Source: a virus
Lineage: Duplodnaviria; Heunggongvirae; Uroviricota; Caudoviricetes
IMG/VR virus record: IMGVR_UViG_2851938318_000001
Length of the DNA: 64,000 nucleotides
Direction: 5' to 3' (one strand)
The first letter of the stretch is position 1. Each line of letters begins with the position of its first letter. Of the stretch, positions 804-59,616 are shown piece after piece. The notes below the pieces were generated by a model. It searched no databases and was not told where the DNA came from. It saw only the letters and a list, made by a program, of their open reading frames with translations. The position numbers and the translations under genes are program-made.

Positions 804-1949
804 ATGAAATACATAAAACCTTCATCGTTGCTGGCATTAACTTTGCTTTTTAGCTCTGGATTCGTTAACGCAGACAATAAACAAACGCTGATAGAAGCCG
901 CTAACGCAGGTGATACCGCAGCACAAAGTGAGTTAGGGACAAATTATTTGGATGGTGTCAATGGTTTTGATAAGGATGTAGTTGAGGCCAAGAAGTGGAT
1001 TGATCTCGCTGCAGAAAAGGGAGATAAAGTAGCATATTATGCACTTGGAGTTATGTACACATTTGGCGAGGGTGTAGATAAAGACCTAAATAAAGCTGTT
1101 GAGTACTACAAACTTGCGGGGGATGCTCGTGAAGGTAGAGCCTACAACAATCTTGGTGCTATTTATCAAAAGGGGATGCTTGGTAAAGTAGATCATGCAC
1201 TCGCCATTAAATACTTCAAACTAGCCTCTGATGCCGGGTATGTTAAAGCAACTTCAGTTCTTGGGGCGTATTACCAATATGGTAAAGGCGTTCAAAAGAA
1301 TTATAAAAAGGCTTTTACTTATTACAAAAAGGCGGCAGACCAAGGCAGTTCAGAAGCTATGATAGGATTAGGAATACTATACGATGATGGGTTAGGCGTT
1401 AAACGCAATGATGCAGAAGCAGTTAAGTGGTATAAAAAGGCAGCGGAACTTGGAAACGCCGACGCCATAACCAATCTTGGCATTATGTATGAGAATGGGG
1501 AAGGAGTAAAAAAGGACTATAAAAAAGCAGCCGACCTTTATCAGACTGCTTGCAATAAAGGAGAAAAAAGAGGCTGTGAATACATTACTGAACTGAAAGA
1601 AAGCGGAAAATATCGAGTATCTGATTCCAAAGCCAAATCAAAATCAGATGTACAGCGACTTATTGCTAAATCCATTGATAAAGGCGTTAACGCAACTTTT
1701 ACCTGGCAAGGTGATGACGCCACATTCACCGCTAATGGCGGCAAAATTGACTGCACTTTCCTAAAGGATTTTTCAGAGAAAGGAGGCAATCTGGCTACCT
1801 CGTTTGTTTGCACCGATAACGTTCAAATCATCCTGAAGCAATTCAGAGATACCAAGAATGCCTACCTCGCGGTAATGACTGACAACTTCAACACAGAAGT
1901 TAAATCATTTTCGGTCAATGTTTACGTGACTAATACTGGTTCAAACTAA
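804..1949 (+). CDS. secreted Sel1-like repeat (TPR-like) protein
   Basis: 381 aa; hydrophobic N-terminal signal sequence; several tandem ~36-aa repeats with the A-x-x-W-Y-x-K-A-A-x-x-G pattern followed by G-x-x-Y-x-x-G-x-G-V. Confidence 0.7.
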   Translation: MKYIKPSSLLALTLLFSSGFVNADNKQTLIEAANAGDTAAQSELGTNYLDGVNGFDKDVVEAKKWIDLAAEKGDKVAYYALGVMYTFGEGVDKDLNKAVEYYKLAGDAREGRAYNNLGAIYQKGMLGKVDHALAIKYFKLASDAGYVKATSVLGAYYQYGKGVQKNYKKAFTYYKKAADQGSSEAMIGLGILYDDGLGVKRNDAEAVKWYKKAAELGNADAITNLGIMYENGEGVKKDYKKAADLYQTACNKGEKRGCEYITELKESGKYRVSDSKAKSKSDVQRLIAKSIDKGVNATFTWQGDDATFTANGGKIDCTFLKDFSEKGGNLATSFVCTDNVQIILKQFRDTKNAYLAVMTDNFNTEVKSFSVNVYVTNTGSN

Positions 1950-7458: not shown

Positions 7459-7633
7459 TGGAGAGTTCCCTTTGCGTATATAATTATCGTCTGAAACAAC
7501 TTGTTTTCTTATATGTGATATAGCCTAAATGCCTACGGCTGCGGTGTAAAGGTTAAATGGTAGGTTGTGATTAACAATTTGAACCGCCCCGGAAATCCTG
7601 GAGACTAAACTCCCTGAGAAAGAGGTAAACAGG

Positions 7634-7960
7634 ATGACTAAAAATACTCGTTTTTCCCCCGAAGTCCGTCAGCGGGCGATTCGTATGGTTCTGGAAAGTC
7701 AGGATGAATATGACTCACAGTGGGCGGCAATTTGTTCCATTGCCCCAAAGATTGGCTGTACGCCGGAGACTCTGCGTGTCTGGGTTCGCCAGCATGAGCG
7801 GGATACCGGGGGCGGTGATGGTGGGCTCACCAGCGCTGAACGTCAGCGTCTGAAAGAGCTGGAACGTGAAAATCGTGAACTGCGCCGCAGTAACGATATC
7901 CTTCGCCAGGCTTCCGCTTATTTTGCGAAGGCGGAGTTCGACCGCCTCTGGAAAAAATGA
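7634..7960 (+). CDS. IS3-family transposase OrfA (HTH)
   Basis: 108 aa; A-run at the orfA/orfB overlap consistent with -1 frameshifting. Confidence 0.85.
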
Positions 7961-8847
7961 TGCCACTGCTGGATAAGCTGCGTGAGCAGTACGGGGTCGG
8001 ACCGGTATGCAGCGAACTGCATATTGCCCCGTCAACGTATTACCATTGTCAGCAACAGCGACATCATCCGGATAAACGCAGTGCCCGTGCGCAGCACGAC
8101 GACTGGCTGAAGAGAGAGATACAGCGCGTATACGATGAAAATCATCAGGTGTACGGTGTGCGTAAAGTCTGGCGTCAGTTGTTACGGGAAGGAATCAGGG
8201 TGGCCAGATGTACAGTGGCACGTCTCATGGCGGTTATGGGACTTGCCGGTGTTCTCCGGGGTAAAAAGGTCCGTACGACCATCAGCCGGAAAGCCGTTGC
8301 CGCAGGCGACCGCGTAAACCGTCAGTTCGTGGCAGAACGACCTGACCAGCTGTGGGTGGCTGATTTTACTTACGTCAGCACATGGCAGGGCTTCGTCTAT
8401 GTGGCGTTTATCATTGATGTGTTTGCCGGATACATCGTGGGGTGGCGGGTCTCATCGTCTATGGAAACGACATTCGTGCTGGATGCGCTGGAGCAGGCGT
8501 TGTGGGCCCGTCGTCCGTCTGGCACCATCCATCACAGCGATAAAGGCTCTCAGTATGTGTCACTGGCCTATACGGAGCGACTAAAAGAAGCCGGATTACT
8601 GGCATCAACAGGGAGTACAGGCGACTCGTATGACAACGCGATGGCTGAGAGCATCAATGGTCTTTACAAAGCGGAGGTAATACACCGTAAGAGCTGGAAA
8701 AACCGTGCAGAAGTGGAACTGGCCACACTAACGTGGGTGGACTGGTATAACAATCGACGATTGCTGGGAAGGCTGGGCCATACTCCTCCGGCAGAAGCAG
8801 AAAAAGCTTATTATGCTTCCATCGGAAACGATGATCTGGCAGCCTGA
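7957..8847 (+). CDS. IS3-family transposase OrfB (DDE catalytic domain)
   Basis: 296-aa ORF in the -1 frame relative to OrfA. Confidence 0.85.
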
Positions 8848-9089
8848 GTTCACAGATAAAACACTCTCCAGGAAACCCGGGGCGGTTCAATTGGCAATCA
8901 TAGCTTGTATTTGTCTGTTGAAAAAAGTAACAATGACCTCTATATTACAAGTACGGTGATATGCCGTACACAATTTGATAATGCACACGTAATGGGCTAT
9001 AGCCTTTTAAAGTAATTTTTGAGTCGAAAACTCAGTTTGAACAGAGGAGATTGATGGCCTTCCTACATCACGGCCATCAGGAGGAATAC

Positions 9090-9359
9090 ATGTCAGCACT
9101 AAAAAAGCAGCGCATCGATTTGAGATTAACCGATGACGATAAAAGCATCATCGAGGAAGCTGCCGCAATGTCTAACCAGAGCATTACTCAGTTTATGGTT
9201 AGCAGTGCATCTGAACGTGCCGTGAAAGTTATAGAGCAACACCGTAGACTAGTTCTGAATGAAGAATCCTGGAATCTGGTTATGGACGCTATAAGCAATC
9301 CTCCGGCACCGAACGACAAGCTGAAACGAGCTGCTGATCGTCTGAAAAGCATGGAGTAG
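9090..9359 (+). CDS. DUF1778-type antitoxin (TacA-like)
   Basis: Start chosen at ATG 9090 preceded by AGGAGG; about 89 aa; immediately upstream of the GNAT toxin gene. Confidence 0.65.
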   Translation: MSALKKQRIDLRLTDDDKSIIEEAAAMSNQSITQFMVSSASERAVKVIEQHRRLVLNEESWNLVMDAISNPPAPNDKLKRAADRLKSME

Positions 9360-9366
9360 TTTACTC

Positions 9367-9888
9367 GTGAGCAATACAACGATAGAGATTTTCTCTGGAG
9401 AGAAAGATTATGATCTAAACGGTTTTGATTGCGGCGAAGAGTCACTAAACGCCTTTTTAGCCAACCACTTAAAAAGGCAGCATGAGGGAAAAATTCTTCG
9501 TGCTTATGTGCTTTGCACTCAAGAAGAAAGGCCAAAAGTGTTAGGATATTACACTTTGTCAGGTAGTTGTTTTGAAAAGGAGTCCTTACCTTCAAGAAGC
9601 AAACAAAAGAAGGTTCCTTATCGGAATGTTCCAAGTGTTACTTTGGGTAGGCTGGCTTTGGACAAGCCCCTTCAAGGTCAAGGATTTGGCTCAATGCTTG
9701 TAACACATGCAATGCGCGTTGTGTACAATGCATCTCTTGCTGTAGGCATTCATGGACTTTTCGTTGAGGCGTTAAATGACAAAGCCAAGGCGTTTTATAA
9801 AAGTTTAGGCTTTATCCAGCTGGTTGGTAACAACGAGCGTTCTTTGTTCTATCCTACAAAATCTATCGAAAAATTGTTCGAAGAATAA
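9367..9888 (+). CDS. GNAT-family acetyltransferase toxin (TacT-like)
   Basis: 173 aa; acyl-CoA-binding motif QGQGFGSMLV; GTG start 8 nt after antitoxin stop. Confidence 0.65.
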   Translation: MSNTTIEIFSGEKDYDLNGFDCGEESLNAFLANHLKRQHEGKILRAYVLCTQEERPKVLGYYTLSGSCFEKESLPSRSKQKKVPYRNVPSVTLGRLALDKPLQGQGFGSMLVTHAMRVVYNASLAVGIHGLFVEALNDKAKAFYKSLGFIQLVGNNERSLFYPTKSIEKLFEE

Positions 9889-19530: not shown

Positions 19531-19572
19531 TGAACCGCCCCGGGTTTCCTGGAGAGTGTTTTATCTGTGAAC

Positions 19573-20463
19573 TCAGGCTGCCAGATCATCGTTTCCGATG
19601 GAAGCATAATAAGCTTTTTCTGCTTCTGCCGGAGGAGTATGGCCCAGCCTTCCCAGCAATCGTCGATTGTTATACCAGTCCACCCACGTTAGTGTGGCCA
19701 GTTCCACTTCTGCACGGTTTTTCCAGCTCTTACGGTGTATTACCTCCGCTTTGTAAAGACCATTGATGCTCTCAGCCATCGCGTTGTCATACGAGTCGCC
19801 TGTACTCCCTGTTGATGCCAGTAATCCGGCTTCTTTTAGTCGCTCCGTATAGGCCAGTGACACATACTGAGAGCCTTTATCGCTGTGATGGATGGTGCCA
19901 GACGGACGACGGGCCCACAACGCCTGCTCCAGCGCATCCAGCACGAATGTCGTTTCCATAGACGATGAGACCCGCCACCCCACGATGTATCCGGCAAACA
20001 CATCAATGATAAACGCCACATAGACGAAGCCCTGCCATGTGCTGACGTAAGTAAAATCAGCCACCCACAGCTGGTCAGGTCGTTCTGCCACGAACTGACG
20101 GTTTACGCGGTCGCCTGCGGCAACGGCTTTCCGGCTGATGGTCGTACGGACCTTTTTACCCCGGAGAACACCGGCAAGTCCCATAACCGCCATGAGACGT
20201 GCCACTGTACATCTGGCCACCCTGATTCCTTCCCGTAACAACTGACGCCAGACTTTACGCACACCGTACACCTGATGATTTTCATCGTATACGCGCTGTA
20301 TCTCTCTCTTCAGCCAGTCGTCGTGCTGCGCACGGGCACTGCGTTTATCCGGATGATGTCGCTGTTGCTGACAATGGTAATACGTTGACGGGGCAATATG
20401 CAGTTCGCTGCATACCGGTCCGACCCCGTACTGCTCACGCAGCTTATCCAGCAGTGGCATCAT
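19573..20463 (-). CDS. IS3-family transposase OrfB
   Basis: 296-aa ORF identical to the copy-1 OrfB. Confidence 0.85.
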
Positions 20464-20786
20464 TTTTTCCAGAGGCGGTCGAACTCCGCCTTCGCAAAAT
20501 AAGCGGAAGCCTGGCGAAGGATATCGTTACTGCGGCGCAGTTCACGATTTTCACGTTCCAGCTCTTTCAGACGCTGACGTTCAGCGCTGGTGAGCCCACC
20601 ATCACCGCCCCCGGTATCCCGCTCATGCTGGCGAACCCAGACACGCAGAGTCTCCGGCGTACAGCCAATCTTTGGGGCAATGGAACAAATTGCCGCCCAC
20701 TGTGAGTCATATTCATCCTGACTTTCCAGAACCATACGAATCGCCCGCTGACGGACTTCGGGGGAAAAACGAGTATTTTTAGTCAT
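20460..20786 (-). CDS. IS3-family transposase OrfA
   Basis: 108-aa ORF identical to the copy-1 OrfA. Confidence 0.85.
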
Positions 20787-20840
20787 CCTGTTTACCTCTT
20801 TCTCAGGGAGTTTAGTCTCCAGGATTTCCGGGGCGGTTCA

Positions 20841-55096: not shown

Positions 55097-57130
55097 TTAC
55101 TTAACCTGGTGGCCAGGTTTAGCACCAGCATCCGGGCTTAACAGGAAGATATCTTTCCCGCCGGGGCCAGCAGCCATCACCATGCCTTCAGAGATACCGA
55201 AGCGCATTTTACGTGGTGCCAGGTTAGCCACCATAATGGTGTGACGACCAATCAGTGCCTGTGGATCTGGATAAGCGGAACGGATGCCTGAGAAGACATT
55301 ACGCTTTTCACCACCGAGATCCAGCGTCAGGCGAAGCAGTTTGTCAGAACCTTCTACAAACTCTGCGTTTTCAATCAGCGCCACGCGCAGGTCAACTTTG
55401 GCGAAGTCGTCAAAGGTGATAGTTTCCTGAATCGGGTCGTCAGCCAGTGGGCCAGTTACCGGTGCGGCTGTGGCTTTCACTTCTTCTTTGGATGCTTCCA
55501 CCAGTGCTTCAACCTGCTTCATATCGATGCGGTTATACAGTGCCTTGAACGGATTCACTTTATGGCCCAGCAGCGGTTGCTGGATACCATCCCAGGTCAG
55601 TTCTGTATTCAGGAATGCTTCTGCACGTTCAGTCAGTTTCGGCAGTACCGGCTTCAGGTACGTCATCAGCACGCGGAACAGGTTAATGCCCATAGAGCAA
55701 ATCGCCTGCAGATCGGCATCGCGTCCTTCCTGCTTCGCCACCACCCACGGAGCCTGTTCATCGACATAGCGGTTAGCCAGGTCAGCCAATGCCATGATTT
55801 CACGGATAGCTTTACCAAATTCGCGGCTTTCCCACGCTTCACCAATCACTTCAGCGGCATCAGTGAAGGTTTTGTACAACTGCGGGTCAGCCAATTCGCT
55901 TGCCAGCACGCCGTCAAAACGCTTGTTGATAAAGCCCGCATTACGAGAGGCCAGGTTAACCACTTTGTTCACGATATCGGCATTCACGCGCTGAACGAAA
56001 TCCTCCAGGTTGAGATCGATATCATCAATGCGCGAAGAGAGTTTCGCAGTGTAGTAGTAACGCAGGCTGTCGGCGTCAAAATGATTCAGCCAGGTGCTGG
56101 CTTTAATAAAGGTGCCGCGAGACTTGGACATCTTCGCGCCGTTCACCGTCACATAGCCGTGAACAAACAGGTTGGTCGGCTTGCGGAAGTTGCTGCCTTC
56201 CAGCATGGCAGGCCAGAACAGGCTGTGGAAGTAAACAATATCTTTACCGATGAAGTGGTACAGCTCGGCGGTGGAGTCTTTCTTCCAGTATTCATCGAAG
56301 CTGGAGGTGTCGCCGCGTTTGTCGCACAGATTCTTGAAGGAACCCATGTAGCCAATCGGCGCGTCCAGCCAGACGTAGAAATATTTGCCCGGTGCGTTCG
56401 GAATTTCAAAACCGAAGTACGGCGCATCGCGGGAGATATCCCACTGTTGCAGACCAGATTCAAACCACTCCTGCATTTTGTTTGCCACCTGCTCCTGCAA
56501 CGCACCGCTGCGGGTCCATGCCTGCAACATTTCGCTGAAAGAAGGCAGATCAAAGAAGAAGTGTTCGGAATCACGCATTACCGGCGTAGCACCAGAAACT
56601 ACCGATTTCGGCTCGATCAGTTCAGTAGGGCTGTATGTCGCGCCGCAGACTTCACAGTTATCGCCGTATTGATCCGGCGCTTTACATTTCGGGCATGTGC
56701 CTTTCACAAAACGGTCCGGCAGGAACATGCCTTTTTCCGGGTCGTACAGCTGAGAGATGGTGCGGTTTTTAATAAAACCGTTCTCTTTCAGGCGAGTATA
56801 GATAAGCTCGGACAACTGACGGTTCTCTTCGCTGTGCGTCGAGTGATAGTTGTCATAGCTGATGTTAAAGCCTGCAAAATCAGTCTGGTGTTCCTGACTC
56901 ATTTCGCCAATCATCTGTTCCGGTGTGATACCAAGCTGCTGTGCTTTCAGCATGATCGGTGTGCCGTGGGCATCGTCGGCACAGATGAAATTAACCTCGT
57001 GGCCGCGCATTCGCTGGTAACGAACCCAGACATCAGCCTGGATGTGCTCCAGCATATGGCCGAGGTGGATTGAGCCGTTAGCGTACGGCAGCGCGCACGT
57101 CACCAGAATTTTCTTCGCGACTTGGGTCAT
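55097..57130 (-). CDS. metG: methionyl-tRNA synthetase
   Basis: 677 aa from [26 protein letters not shown] (HIGH motif), KMSKS motif present; the 720-aa track ORF has an N-terminal extension upstream of the real start. Confidence 0.95.
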
Positions 57131-57287
57131 AGTAGGCATTACTTCTTTGTAGTGAAAAGGGGCTTGATAGTAACAAAATGGCCTTATGTCTGCCATGTGA
57201 TAACAGCATTTCTCATAAATGATTAAATGCCGTAGCTGGAGTACACTACAAGGCGACAATTGCGCAAATTAAAATAAAGGAGACGGG

Positions 57288-58388
57288 ATGAGCGAGTCCA
57301 AATCGCCGGATGCCCTGAGAGCAATGGTAGCCGGTACGCTGGCTAATTTTCAGCACCCAACCCTGAAACACAATCTGACTACGCTTAAAGCGTTACACCA
57401 TGTTGCGTTGATGGATGACACACTGCATGTCGAACTAATCATGCCTTTCGTGTGGAATAAGCCTTTTGAAGACCTGAAAGAGCAATGTAGTGGTGATCTG
57501 CTCCGTATCACTGGCGCAAAGGCTATTGACTGGAAGCTGTCGTACAACATTGCCACGCTTAAGCGCGTCAAAAACCAACCAGGCATTAATGGCGTGAAGA
57601 ACATTATCGCCGTCAGCTCAGGCAAGGGCGGCGTTGGTAAATCCTCCACGGCGGTAAACCTGGCACTGGCGTTGGCTGCTGAAGGTGCGAAAGTTGGTAT
57701 TTTGGATGCCGATATCTACGGGCCATCAATTCCAACCATGCTTGGCGCGGAAAACCAACGTCCAACCTCACCGGACGGTACTCACATGGCACCGATTATG
57801 TCTCATGGACTGGCAACCAATTCAATTGGTTATCTGGTAACTGACGACAATGCGATGGTGTGGCGTGGTCCGATGGCGAGCAAGGCGTTAATGCAGATGT
57901 TGCAGGAAACTCTATGGCCTGATCTGGACTATCTCGTTCTCGATATGCCGCCGGGTACTGGTGATATTCAGCTGACGCTGGCGCAGAACATTCCTGTAAC
58001 TGGTGCTGTTGTGGTAACTACGCCGCAAGATATCGCGCTGATCGATGCGAAGAAAGGCATTGTGATGTTCGAAAAAGTCGAAGTGCCGGTACTGGGTATC
58101 GTCGAAAACATGAGTGTGCATATTTGCAGTAACTGCGGTCATCACGAGCCAATTTTTGGCACCGGTGGCGCACAGAAGCTGGCCGAGAAATACAACACGC
58201 AGTTGTTAGGCCAAATGCCACTTCATATCTCTCTTCGTGAAGATCTGGATAACGGAACACCAACCGTTATTAGTCGTCCAGATAGCGAATTTACGGCTAT
58301 TTATCGTGACCTCGCAGATCGCGTTGCTGCCCAAATGTATTGGCAAGGTGAAGTAATACCTGGCGAAATCGCATTCCGCGCAGTGTGA
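57288..58388 (+). CDS. apbC: iron-sulfur cluster carrier ATPase Mrp/ApbC
   Basis: 366 aa; deviant Walker A SGKGGVGKSS; CxxC near the C-terminus; divergent from metG as in E. coli. Confidence 0.9.
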   Translation: MSESKSPDALRAMVAGTLANFQHPTLKHNLTTLKALHHVALMDDTLHVELIMPFVWNKPFEDLKEQCSGDLLRITGAKAIDWKLSYNIATLKRVKNQPGINGVKNIIAVSSGKGGVGKSSTAVNLALALAAEGAKVGILDADIYGPSIPTMLGAENQRPTSPDGTHMAPIMSHGLATNSIGYLVTDDNAMVWRGPMASKALMQMLQETLWPDLDYLVLDMPPGTGDIQLTLAQNIPVTGAVVVTTPQDIALIDAKKGIVMFEKVEVPVLGIVENMSVHICSNCGHHEPIFGTGGAQKLAEKYNTQLLGQMPLHISLREDLDNGTPTVISRPDSEFTAIYRDLADRVAAQMYWQGEVIPGEIAFRAV

Positions 58389-58414
58389 TAAAAAGGTGGT
58401 GCAATGCACCACCT
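58389..58414 (-). terminator. rho-independent terminator after the UmuD'-like gene
   Basis: Hairpin aggtggtgca-t-tgcaccacct followed on the minus strand by TTTTTAT. Confidence 0.5.
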
Positions 58415-58425
58415 AAACAGTTCTC

Positions 58426-58815
58426 CTACATCACAGGACAATCATCAAACTCGCCACTTCTTGCGTCGTTGATAATGTGAGTGATCACACCAAACACGGC
58501 ATTGCTGCCCGTGCATCCATCATCATCCTTTGGCAATGCTTCCTTCTTACCAGTTCTTAAATCCTCCAGATGCTGACGTGGATACTTCCGGTATCTTTTT
58601 ACGCGATATTCCCCATCCAGAGCACATACAAGAAGAGATCCATCAACAGGAGTGAGTGAGGAATCGACCACCAGCAATGCACCCTGCAATATTCCCTCAC
58701 GATGATGGCTGTCTGCCGCCCTCATGAAGTAGGTCGCTGAAGGATGTCTAATTATCTGCTGATCAAGAGAAATACGGCTCTCAGCATAATCCGCCGCAGG
58801 AGAAGGGAAGCCCAT
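58426..58815 (-). CDS. UmuD'-like S24 peptidase-fold protein (lacks the N-terminal arm and Cys-Gly cleavage site)
   Basis: 129 aa starting MGFPSPAADY, matching the start of processed UmuD'; conserved Ser (AADS) and Lys (YRVKRY); in-frame TAA four codons upstream of the ATG; SD AGAGG. Confidence 0.65.
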   Translation of the reverse strand: MGFPSPAADYAESRISLDQQIIRHPSATYFMRAADSHHREGILQGALLVVDSSLTPVDGSLLVCALDGEYRVKRYRKYPRQHLEDLRTGKKEALPKDDDGCTGSNAVFGVITHIINDARSGEFDDCPVM

Positions 58816-58831
58816 AATACTCGCCTCTTAA

Positions 58832-58851
58832 TACTGTATATACATACAGTA
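58832..58851. promoter_or_regulatory. LexA box (SOS operator)
   Basis: TACTGTATATACATACAGTA: perfect CTGT-N8-ACAG palindrome just upstream of the SD and ATG of the UmuD'-like gene. Confidence 0.75.
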
Positions 58852-59477
58852 TATGTTGAAGCTATATATTTTTGAACTCTATCTCTTAAAAAAGATGTTA
58901 ATAAGATGCTAACTATTGAAAGGCATAAATATATACAATTCCAACAAACGTTATTTTTAACAAATTTTTTCTCTCTGTTGACTTTTGCGAAAGCCTTGTC
59001 TGGCCTAAATTGCGCGGAAGCTACTTTTTCCTTCCTGAGTTATCCACAGAGTTATGCACTTGCATGCATAACCTATACACACTATCTTAATTCGCAAGAC
59101 ACTGATGTTGCGGTATTGAAGGTTCATTGGGTTAAAAATAGACATTAAAAAGCCCAGTTGACTAGGCTGGGCTTTTTAAAAGGAAACAGAGTTTGCGGCT
59201 CTGTTCCTGAGCCATAAGTATCTGGCGACTGAATTAAGATTAACCGAATGTACTGGATTCATCAAGAAACGTTGAGTGGTCATACCAGGTAATAATGACC
59301 ATTTACTAAACATCGTTGTTCTCAAAGAAGATTTAAGTCCAGGTTTTTGGTGACTCTAAAACCTTACCTTAACTCGAAATCGTGCCGTAAGTATCTGGCG
59401 ACTACAGATATTGCAACTGCAAAGGCAAGCCCAAAGGTATTTGCAGCTAGGCGCGATAAAACTAAGTGAGGCCTGTT

Positions 59478-59561
59478 ATGGTTAACTTACTGTTCAAAAT
59501 CGTGCCGCCGATGTTCGCGATTATCAAAGCGATCATTGAGTACGTAAACCAGCGTCCATAA
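59478..59561 (+). CDS. small hydrophobic peptide (27 aa), candidate small membrane protein or type I toxin
   Basis: ATG 59478 with GTGAGG 7 nt upstream; MVNLLFKIVPPMFAIIKAIIEYVNQRP; terminator hairpin after the stop; too short for the ORF track. Confidence 0.35.
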   Translation: MVNLLFKIVPPMFAIIKAIIEYVNQRP

Positions 59562-59574
59562 CGCTAGTTGCTAC

Positions 59575-59608
59575 AGGCCCCATCAAGAGCATGGGGCCTC
59601 TTTATCGT
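59575..59608 (+). terminator. rho-independent terminator
   Basis: Hairpin aggcccca-tcaagagca-tggggcct followed by CTTTAT. Confidence 0.5.
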
Positions 59609-59616
59609 ACTATTGC

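Follow-up and report, generated by a model that had tools for sequence, protein, structure and literature searches.

A humD gene with a predicted LexA box on an SSU5-like phage-plasmid, and the conservation of its pre-truncated UmuD'-like family

The minus strand of the window (the whole stretch of phage DNA analysed here, 64,000 nucleotides in length) carries, next to an mrp gene, an open reading frame whose predicted product begins where the activated form of E. coli UmuD begins. Such a locus raises the question of whether a UmuD'-like protein that is encoded in shortened form, and without a umuC gene beside it, is a working part of the SOS response or what is left of a umuDC operon, and, if it works, with which partner. 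We identify the gene at 58426..58815, on the strength of its sequence, as humD, an ordinary member of its family, carried by an SSU5-like phage-plasmid. HumD is already known: the family was first described in phage P1 and was characterised in 1999 (McLenigan et al., J Bacteriol 181:7005), and as an annotated member of that family the gene has little discovery value. The comparative pattern within the family, set out below, is a clean natural experiment on which part of UmuD' counts when no cleavage is required.

Identity and predicted control of the gene

Translation of the ORF (58426..58815, minus strand; Table 1) yields 129 aa with MGFPSPAADY as the first residues, as a sequence-only reading of the window had stated, and an in-frame TAA separated from the ATG by four codons (upstream translation ...YIQY-stop-EASIM) bars a longer N-terminus, again in agreement with that reading. 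Full-length alignment to UmuD' structures places residue 2 of the product at UmuD Gly25, the first residue of UmuD', and the GFPSPAADY arm is identical in the two, which bears out the proposed relationship of this N-terminus to that of UmuD'. In the same alignment Ser60 and Lys97 of UmuD correspond to Ser36 (AADSHH) and Lys73 (VKRY), and the alignment and the upstream stop together leave the product with neither the N-terminal arm of UmuD nor its cleavage site. The best matches among solved structures are UmuD' (1umu, E = 6.7e-23) and UmuD (8gmt). UmuD' lacks two parts of the product, an insertion at residues ~86-105 and a C-terminal tail. A Peptidase S24 domain (Pfam PF00717) scores 37.9 bits against a cut-off of 23.3, and the equivalog model NCBIfam NF051876, 'HumD family translesion DNA polymerase', scores 219.8 bits against a cut-off of 120, in a match that covers residues 1-129 of the protein and positions 1-129 of the 129 in the profile; with 87 bits, the product stays under the cut-off of 110 set for the subfamily of autoproteolytic UmuD proteins (NCBIfam NF007621 / PRK10276). 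The protein is identical to phage P1 HumD at 118 of 129 residues (91%) and has a 100% identical counterpart in Escherichia phage Cyrano, and close copies are labelled 'HumD family translesion DNA polymerase' in RefSeq.

Table 1. Features of the humD unit and of the two genes downstream of it (positions in the window).
Feature	Position	Strand	Basis
metG, phage-plasmid cargo, outside the humD unit	55097..57130	-	RefSeq annotation of pRM9131-1
apbC (mrp), phage-plasmid cargo, convergent with humD, outside the humD unit	57288..58388	+	RefSeq annotation of pRM9131-1
Predicted intrinsic humD terminator, 9-bp GC-rich hairpin followed by TTTTT	58389..58414	-	Terminator scan, RNA fold
humD, pre-truncated UmuD' analogue, 129 aa	58426..58815	-	NF051876, Pfam Peptidase_S24, PDB UmuD' 1umu
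TAA (58830..58828) overlapping Shine-Dalgarno AAGAGG (58829..58824), 8 nt before ATG	58824..58830	-	Translation, sequence reading
Predicted LexA (SOS) box TACTGTATATACATACAGTA, 16 nt upstream of ATG	58832..58851	.	Only window match
Putative sigma-70-like promoter, TTCAAA-17 nt-TATACT	58848..58876	-	Consensus scan, 9/12 matches

The predicted LexA box, TACTGTATATACATACAGTA, is the sole match in the 64-kb window to TACTGT-N8-ACAGTA when up to one mismatch is allowed, where 0.07 matches would be expected by chance and at least one occurs in 6 of 100 shuffles, and by our own count 19 of its 20 positions agree with the palindromic consensus TACTGTATATATATACAGTA. In minus-strand orientation, 16 nt that include AAGAGG separate the box from the ATG at 58815, an order that confirms the earlier description of a box lying directly upstream of a Shine-Dalgarno sequence and a start codon. 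The putative -10 hexamer (TATACT) overlaps the left half of the box. The promoter scan of the region returned 2 sites against 2.9 expected from shuffled sequence; the assignment of this putative promoter rests on its position and draws no support from the statistics. At the other end of the gene, the hairpin and T-run of the predicted terminator (58414..58394) fold at -15.3 kcal/mol (z = -2.85), and 0 of 200 shuffles fold as well. Because it has its own promoter, box and terminator, and because the next gene is convergent, the humD unit is predicted to be a self-contained, monocistronic, LexA-boxed gene.

The 760-bp gap between humD and the next annotated gene upstream (58852..59616) holds no RefSeq gene. 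A divergent ORF of 80 aa within it (58906..59148, plus strand) matches phrog_28987, a family with no assigned function, from end to end (E = 6e-58); we rejected this ORF as a homologue of P1 Lxr, to which it has no similarity. At Rfam gathering thresholds no RNA family was found in the gap, and the only Rfam matches in the whole window are two IS3-type ALIL pseudoknots. The gap also contains a second terminator-like hairpin, at 59168..59151, and two direct repeats that have no Rfam match, GCCRTAAGTATCTGGCGACT at 59211..59230 and 59384..59403 (173 nt apart) and TCRAAATCGTGCCG at 59374..59387 and 59494..59507 (120 nt apart).

The carrier replicon and the spread of the gene

Over its whole length the window is 99.998-100% identical to pRM9131-1, a circular plasmid of 117 kb from E. 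coli RM9131. The RefSeq annotation of this replicon combines plasmid functions (repA and ParB-type partition genes) with structural genes of a phage (terminase, portal, major capsid, tape measure and tail genes) and with genes of DNA metabolism (dnaE, nrdAB, thymidylate synthase (thyA), dfrA51, DNA ligase, primase and helicase), and it also lists tRNAs. Because of this gene make-up, and because dfrA51 is the SSU5 gene (PMC12217456), we classify pRM9131-1 by its gene content as an SSU5-like, siphovirus-type phage-plasmid. The humD-apbC-metG arrangement is the same in the isolated phage Cyrano.

Two identical copies of IS1203 (IS3 family) lie in the window in opposite orientation, at 7580..8889 and 19531..20840, each with an ALIL frameshift pseudoknot, and four further copies are found elsewhere on pRM9131-1. 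One IS1203 copy directly borders gpJ, a tail-tip gene that is truncated. Elsewhere on pRM9131-1, IS1203 copies lie next to the genes for an exonuclease and an AAA ATPase, both annotated as partial, and nrdA is in two parts, one on either side of an IS91 transposase gene. On account of these IS copies and disrupted genes, pRM9131-1 itself is probably defective as a phage. A toxin-antitoxin-like pair of genes, for a GNAT-family acetyltransferase and a DUF1778 protein (~9089..9887, RefSeq annotation), adjoins one of the IS1203 copies. A tRNA-linked integration site was ruled out, there being no tRNA in the window.

The mrp gene that the sequence-only reading had placed 38 bp from the UmuD'-like gene is apbC; the adjacency holds, and the distance is to be corrected, as 37 nt separate one stop codon from the other. 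The plasmid copies of metG and apbC share ~90% DNA identity with the chromosomal pair, which 5425 of 5426 E. coli genomes carry, and the homology to the chromosome spans metG-apbC only, ending at the apbC stop codon. In a chromosome of the K-12 type, apbC is followed by yehE, without humD. The earlier assumption of a chromosomal mrp locus has therefore to be abandoned, both because the replicon is plasmid pRM9131-1 and because the chromosomal neighbour of apbC is yehE, and a comparison of the mrp locus across strains, which had been proposed as a check, finds the chromosomal locus without humD and the SSU5-type junction with apbC in 110 genomes. At ~90% identity, the block 55097..58388 (metG and apbC) may have its source in another Escherichia-like lineage and not in E. 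coli itself. In Shigella sonnei, antimicrobial tolerance has been associated with metG carried by a phage-plasmid (Tam et al., as cited in PMC12452169); umuD, metG and LexA go unmentioned in a large survey of phage-plasmids.

A search for umuC with K-12 UmuC (tblastn), against the window and against four pieces covering the 117-kb replicon, gave no match at E <= 10, and umuC is absent from the annotation of pRM9131-1 too, such that the earlier remark that no umuC follows the gene extends to the whole replicon. Nearly all complete E. coli genomes carry a host umuDC (5422 of 5426).

When the window is compared with P1 DNA, similarity starts at the LexA box and stops at the stop codon, with unrelated sequence outside, and the match to a P1-like plasmid is confined to 58434..58860. 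With these boundaries, the LexA box and humD behave as a portable cassette. An orphan, pre-truncated gene of this kind is also found in P1, D6, phiKO2, HK140, BTP1, APC_JM3.2, vB_Ecl_MII_001 and Pocitis76, among which phiKO2 is a linear plasmid-prophage, HK140 is lambdoid, BTP1 and APC_JM3.2 are P22-like, vB_Ecl_MII_001 is an Enterobacter phage and Pocitis76 is a Hafnia phage. The gene usually lies between conversion genes and int in BTP1, APC_JM3.2, vB_Ecl_MII_001 and Pocitis76, and it adjoins a dinI homologue and attP in HK140. In P1, Cyrano, BTP1, Pocitis76, vB_Ecl_MII_001 and, in degenerate form, APC_JM3.2, a CTGT-N8-ACAG box precedes the start by 16-19 nt; in phiKO2 the distance is 44 nt. 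The shorter spacing is kept although the flanking DNA differs among P1, Cyrano, BTP1, Pocitis76 and vB_Ecl_MII_001, and a LexA site is annotated in the P1 and phiKO2 records. The 1.4-kb region made up of humD and its flanks is matched in 820 of 5426 complete E. coli genomes (~15%), mostly on P1-like and SSU5-like phage-plasmids.

The neighbourhood of the gene in two of these phages is also of interest for its second member. In phiKO2 (locus excerpt 1181..1884) the orphan humD-like gene and a dinI homologue diverge across a shared LexA box, and in HK140 (locus excerpt 910..1890) the two genes adjoin each other, suggesting that a humD-like gene and dinI may make up a small phage-borne module for SOS modulation.

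The Ser/Lys dyad, the N-terminal arm and the mode of action

We searched 1.84 billion cluster representatives with the humD product, aligned those of 105-210 aa among the best 150 matches (MAFFT), and retained those whose alignment spans 100 or more of the 129 query positions, with a residue at each site of the dyad. Two groups were compared, pre-truncated proteins (Met directly before G-F-P-S-P-A, n = 35) and proteins whose N-terminal arm is 15 residues or longer (n = 43). Ser and Lys are both kept in 2 of the 35 pre-truncated representatives and in 38 of the 43 with an arm (Fisher p = 3e-14), Ser in 5/35 and 39/43 (p = 3e-12), and Lys in 13/35 and 39/43 (p = 6e-7), with the caveat that the grouping depends on how MAFFT placed the residues near a one-residue indel and on the starts chosen by gene callers, and that the representatives are phylogenetically non-independent. 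The residue after Ser is Met in 37 of 43 full-length clusters versus 3 of 35 pre-truncated ones. At a clustering level of 50% identity, the pre-truncated UmuD'-like proteins among the best 150 matches fall into at least 35 clusters, the cluster of the window's own humD is one of the two that keep both dyad residues, and the best-conserved block in the 35 representatives is the N-terminal arm M-G-F-P-S-P-A-x-D-Y-x-E. In a published model of Pol V, one UmuD' subunit reaches with exactly this segment into the cleft between the palm and the little finger of UmuC, close to the active site (PMC12926913). We infer that the protease becomes dispensable, and so decays, once the gene is born truncated, while the arm that binds UmuC stays under selection. 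The conserved arm and the decayed dyad therefore support a UmuC-directed function of the family.

The sequence-only reading had judged the Ser and Lys positions to be retained. This is correct as far as the residues go, since Ser36 and Lys73 are present in the humD product, and it does not carry over to protease activity: the conserved GDSM is replaced by ADSH and most pre-truncated relatives have lost the dyad, and for these reasons its retention here is weak evidence that the protein cleaves anything. The dyad in the P1/SSU5 clade more likely reflects inertia than activity. A literature search, which did not take in the primary HumD paper, found no paper on dyad decay or on trans-cleavage by HumD.

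By analogy with the 91%-identical HumD of P1, the product of humD, which is predicted to be under LexA control, very probably replaces UmuD' and pairs with host UmuC and RecA as a Pol V-like enzyme. In an undamaged cell, host LexA would sit on the box over the -10 hexamer and keep the monocistronic gene off; DNA damage would then lead to LexA cleavage and to transcription of humD. Methionine aminopeptidase removes Met1 before Gly, a rule under which the mature N-terminus would be GFPSPAADY, the same as that of UmuD'. To judge from its homology with P1 HumD, the protein would need no RecA-stimulated self-cleavage and would not have to wait for the slow cleavage of UmuD, and it would dimerise and bind host chromosomal UmuC and RecA to give a Pol V-like translesion polymerase. 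From what is generally known of UmuD, HumD would also be free of the N-terminal degradation signals of that protein. After damage, the element and the cell would gain lesion bypass and mutagenesis that set in earlier or are stronger. Two proposals of the earlier reading, that the gene would make a UmuD'-like protein under SOS control with the cleavage step bypassed and that it may modulate host translesion synthesis, are in line with what has been published for P1 HumD.

Other readings of the gene have been weighed against this one. If humD were the decaying leftover of a umuDC operon, chromosomal or prophage-borne, next to mrp, with a deleted N-terminus, a lost umuC and no independent function, the missing 24-residue arm and the missing umuC would both be accounted for, and pRM9131-1 does carry many IS copies and several disrupted genes. 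The earlier reading had likewise considered a domesticated prophage or a deletion of umuDC. A comparison of the window's humD with that of P1, however, gives dN = 0.042 and dS = 1.03 (dN/dS = 0.04). The gene is under strong purifying selection, and this ratio leads us to regard it as functional and not as a remnant. Moreover, among 120 close homologues (at least 67% identity; from Escherichia, Citrobacter, Klebsiella, Enterobacter, Salmonella, Kluyvera and Trabulsiella) 110 start exactly at MGFPSPA, and the extensions of the ten longer calls resemble translated upstream non-coding region. An identical start codon, LexA box and length recur in many phages, the carrier is a phage-plasmid and no chromosome, the chromosomal apbC has yehE and no humD beside it, and the gene has a promoter, a ribosome-binding site and a terminator of its own, all predicted. 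We therefore give practically no credence to the remnant reading, which the comparative data refute. A different possibility is that the HumD proteins of this clade act as S24 proteases in trans, for example on host UmuD or on another LexA-like repressor, and would thus be enzymes as well as stand-ins for UmuD'. Cleavage of UmuD is known to be intermolecular, Ser36 and Lys73 are kept both here and in P1, and the clade is among only two of 35 pre-truncated clusters that keep the two residues. Yet G-D-S-M has become ADSH, with the Gly and Met of full-length homologues gone, Met after Ser is a mark of the full-length clusters and rare among the pre-truncated ones, and the Ser position, which is Ser in 75 of the 120 close homologues, is Thr in 43 and Ala in 2, such that selection on a nucleophilic Ser looks weak; a protease role in trans is very improbable.

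HumD might instead act mainly without UmuC, binding RecA filaments or the replisome and tuning SOS, recombination or replication, in the manner of a checkpoint or anti-SOS factor, with mutagenesis as a side effect. The dinI homologue next to the gene in phiKO2 and HK140 is a RecA-filament modulator, UmuD and DinI are described as binding the same groove of the RecA filament (PMC9926225), and the gene occupies moron-like positions near att or int in several phages, all of which would fit such a role. Against it, the best-conserved part of the protein is the N-terminal arm, which is the UmuC contact in the Pol V model (PMC12926913), and P1 HumD is reported, in the summary given in PMC7092418, to complement UmuD' in mutagenesis. 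We consider a mainly UmuC-independent function unlikely and favour the pairing of HumD with host UmuC and RecA. A broader proposal, that the orphan, pre-truncated UmuD' genes are a large and varied family borne by phages, that selection in it has moved entirely to the UmuC-binding arm while the S24 site decays, and that the P1/SSU5 clade, as a rare exception, may also be a trans-protease on host UmuD, is speculative and unlikely.

Because nearly every host has umuC, a pre-activated UmuD' induced through LexA could raise damage-induced mutagenesis, for example under fluoroquinolones. The elements that carry humD also bear resistance or tolerance cargo, such as dfrA51 on pRM9131-1 and the metG gene next to humD.

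Comparison with known systems

Phage-borne UmuD homologues are also found in Klebsiella phage ST846-OXA48phi9.2 and Cronobacter phage ENT39118, the latter with a LexA box. In both, the protein is a full-length UmuD (N-terminal arm, GDSM motif and Lys) and umuC follows directly, whereas the humD of the window has no N-terminal arm, no GDSM motif and no umuC directly after it. With E. coli UmuD and UmuD' (1umu, 1i4v, 8gmt) the humD product shares the S24 domain, the GFPSPAADY arm and the presence of Ser and Lys. It differs from UmuD in having no 24-residue N-terminal arm, no Cys24-Gly25 site and no umuC in an operon with it, and from UmuD' in having an extra loop and a C-terminal tail; with neither the arm nor the Cys24-Gly25 site, HumD would have no RecA-dependent activation step.

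A closer resemblance is to phiKO2 gp23 (N15/phiKO2), HK140_028 and the corresponding proteins of BTP1, vB_Ecl_MII_001 and Pocitis76, which are pre-truncated orphans of ~125-129 aa like the humD product. They are 45-71% identical to it and share its conserved N-terminal arm, and most have an upstream LexA box. Unlike the protein encoded here, those of phiKO2, HK140 and vB_Ecl have Thr in place of the catalytic Ser, and that of Pocitis76 has Tyr at this position and Arg in place of Lys.

The closest system is that of P1. The P1 record states that HumD 'functionally complements E. coli UmuD'' and lists a 'LexA binding site in the regulatory region of lxr and humD', 20 nt before humD. Like P1 HumD, the protein encoded in the window has 129 aa, starts with MGFPSPAADY and keeps Ser and Lys in ADSH and (V/I)KRY contexts, and like the P1 gene it has a LexA box 16-19 nt upstream, has no umuC and is borne by a phage-plasmid. 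Unlike P1, the carrier is an SSU5-like, siphovirus-type phage-plasmid, and in place of the divergent lxr and the downstream phd-doc of P1 the gene has the phrog_28987 ORF divergent from it and apbC-metG downstream. P1 HumD is reported to dimerise, to associate with UmuC and with RecA filaments and, given good expression, to restore mutagenesis; it is also said to be poorly expressed, and to complement well only from a high-copy plasmid. If its expression is as poor as that, the natural benefit to the phage is uncertain. According to the published summary of the original study, P1 HumD is a functional, pre-shortened analogue of UmuD' without a umuC partner (McLenigan et al. 1999, summarised in PMC7092418).
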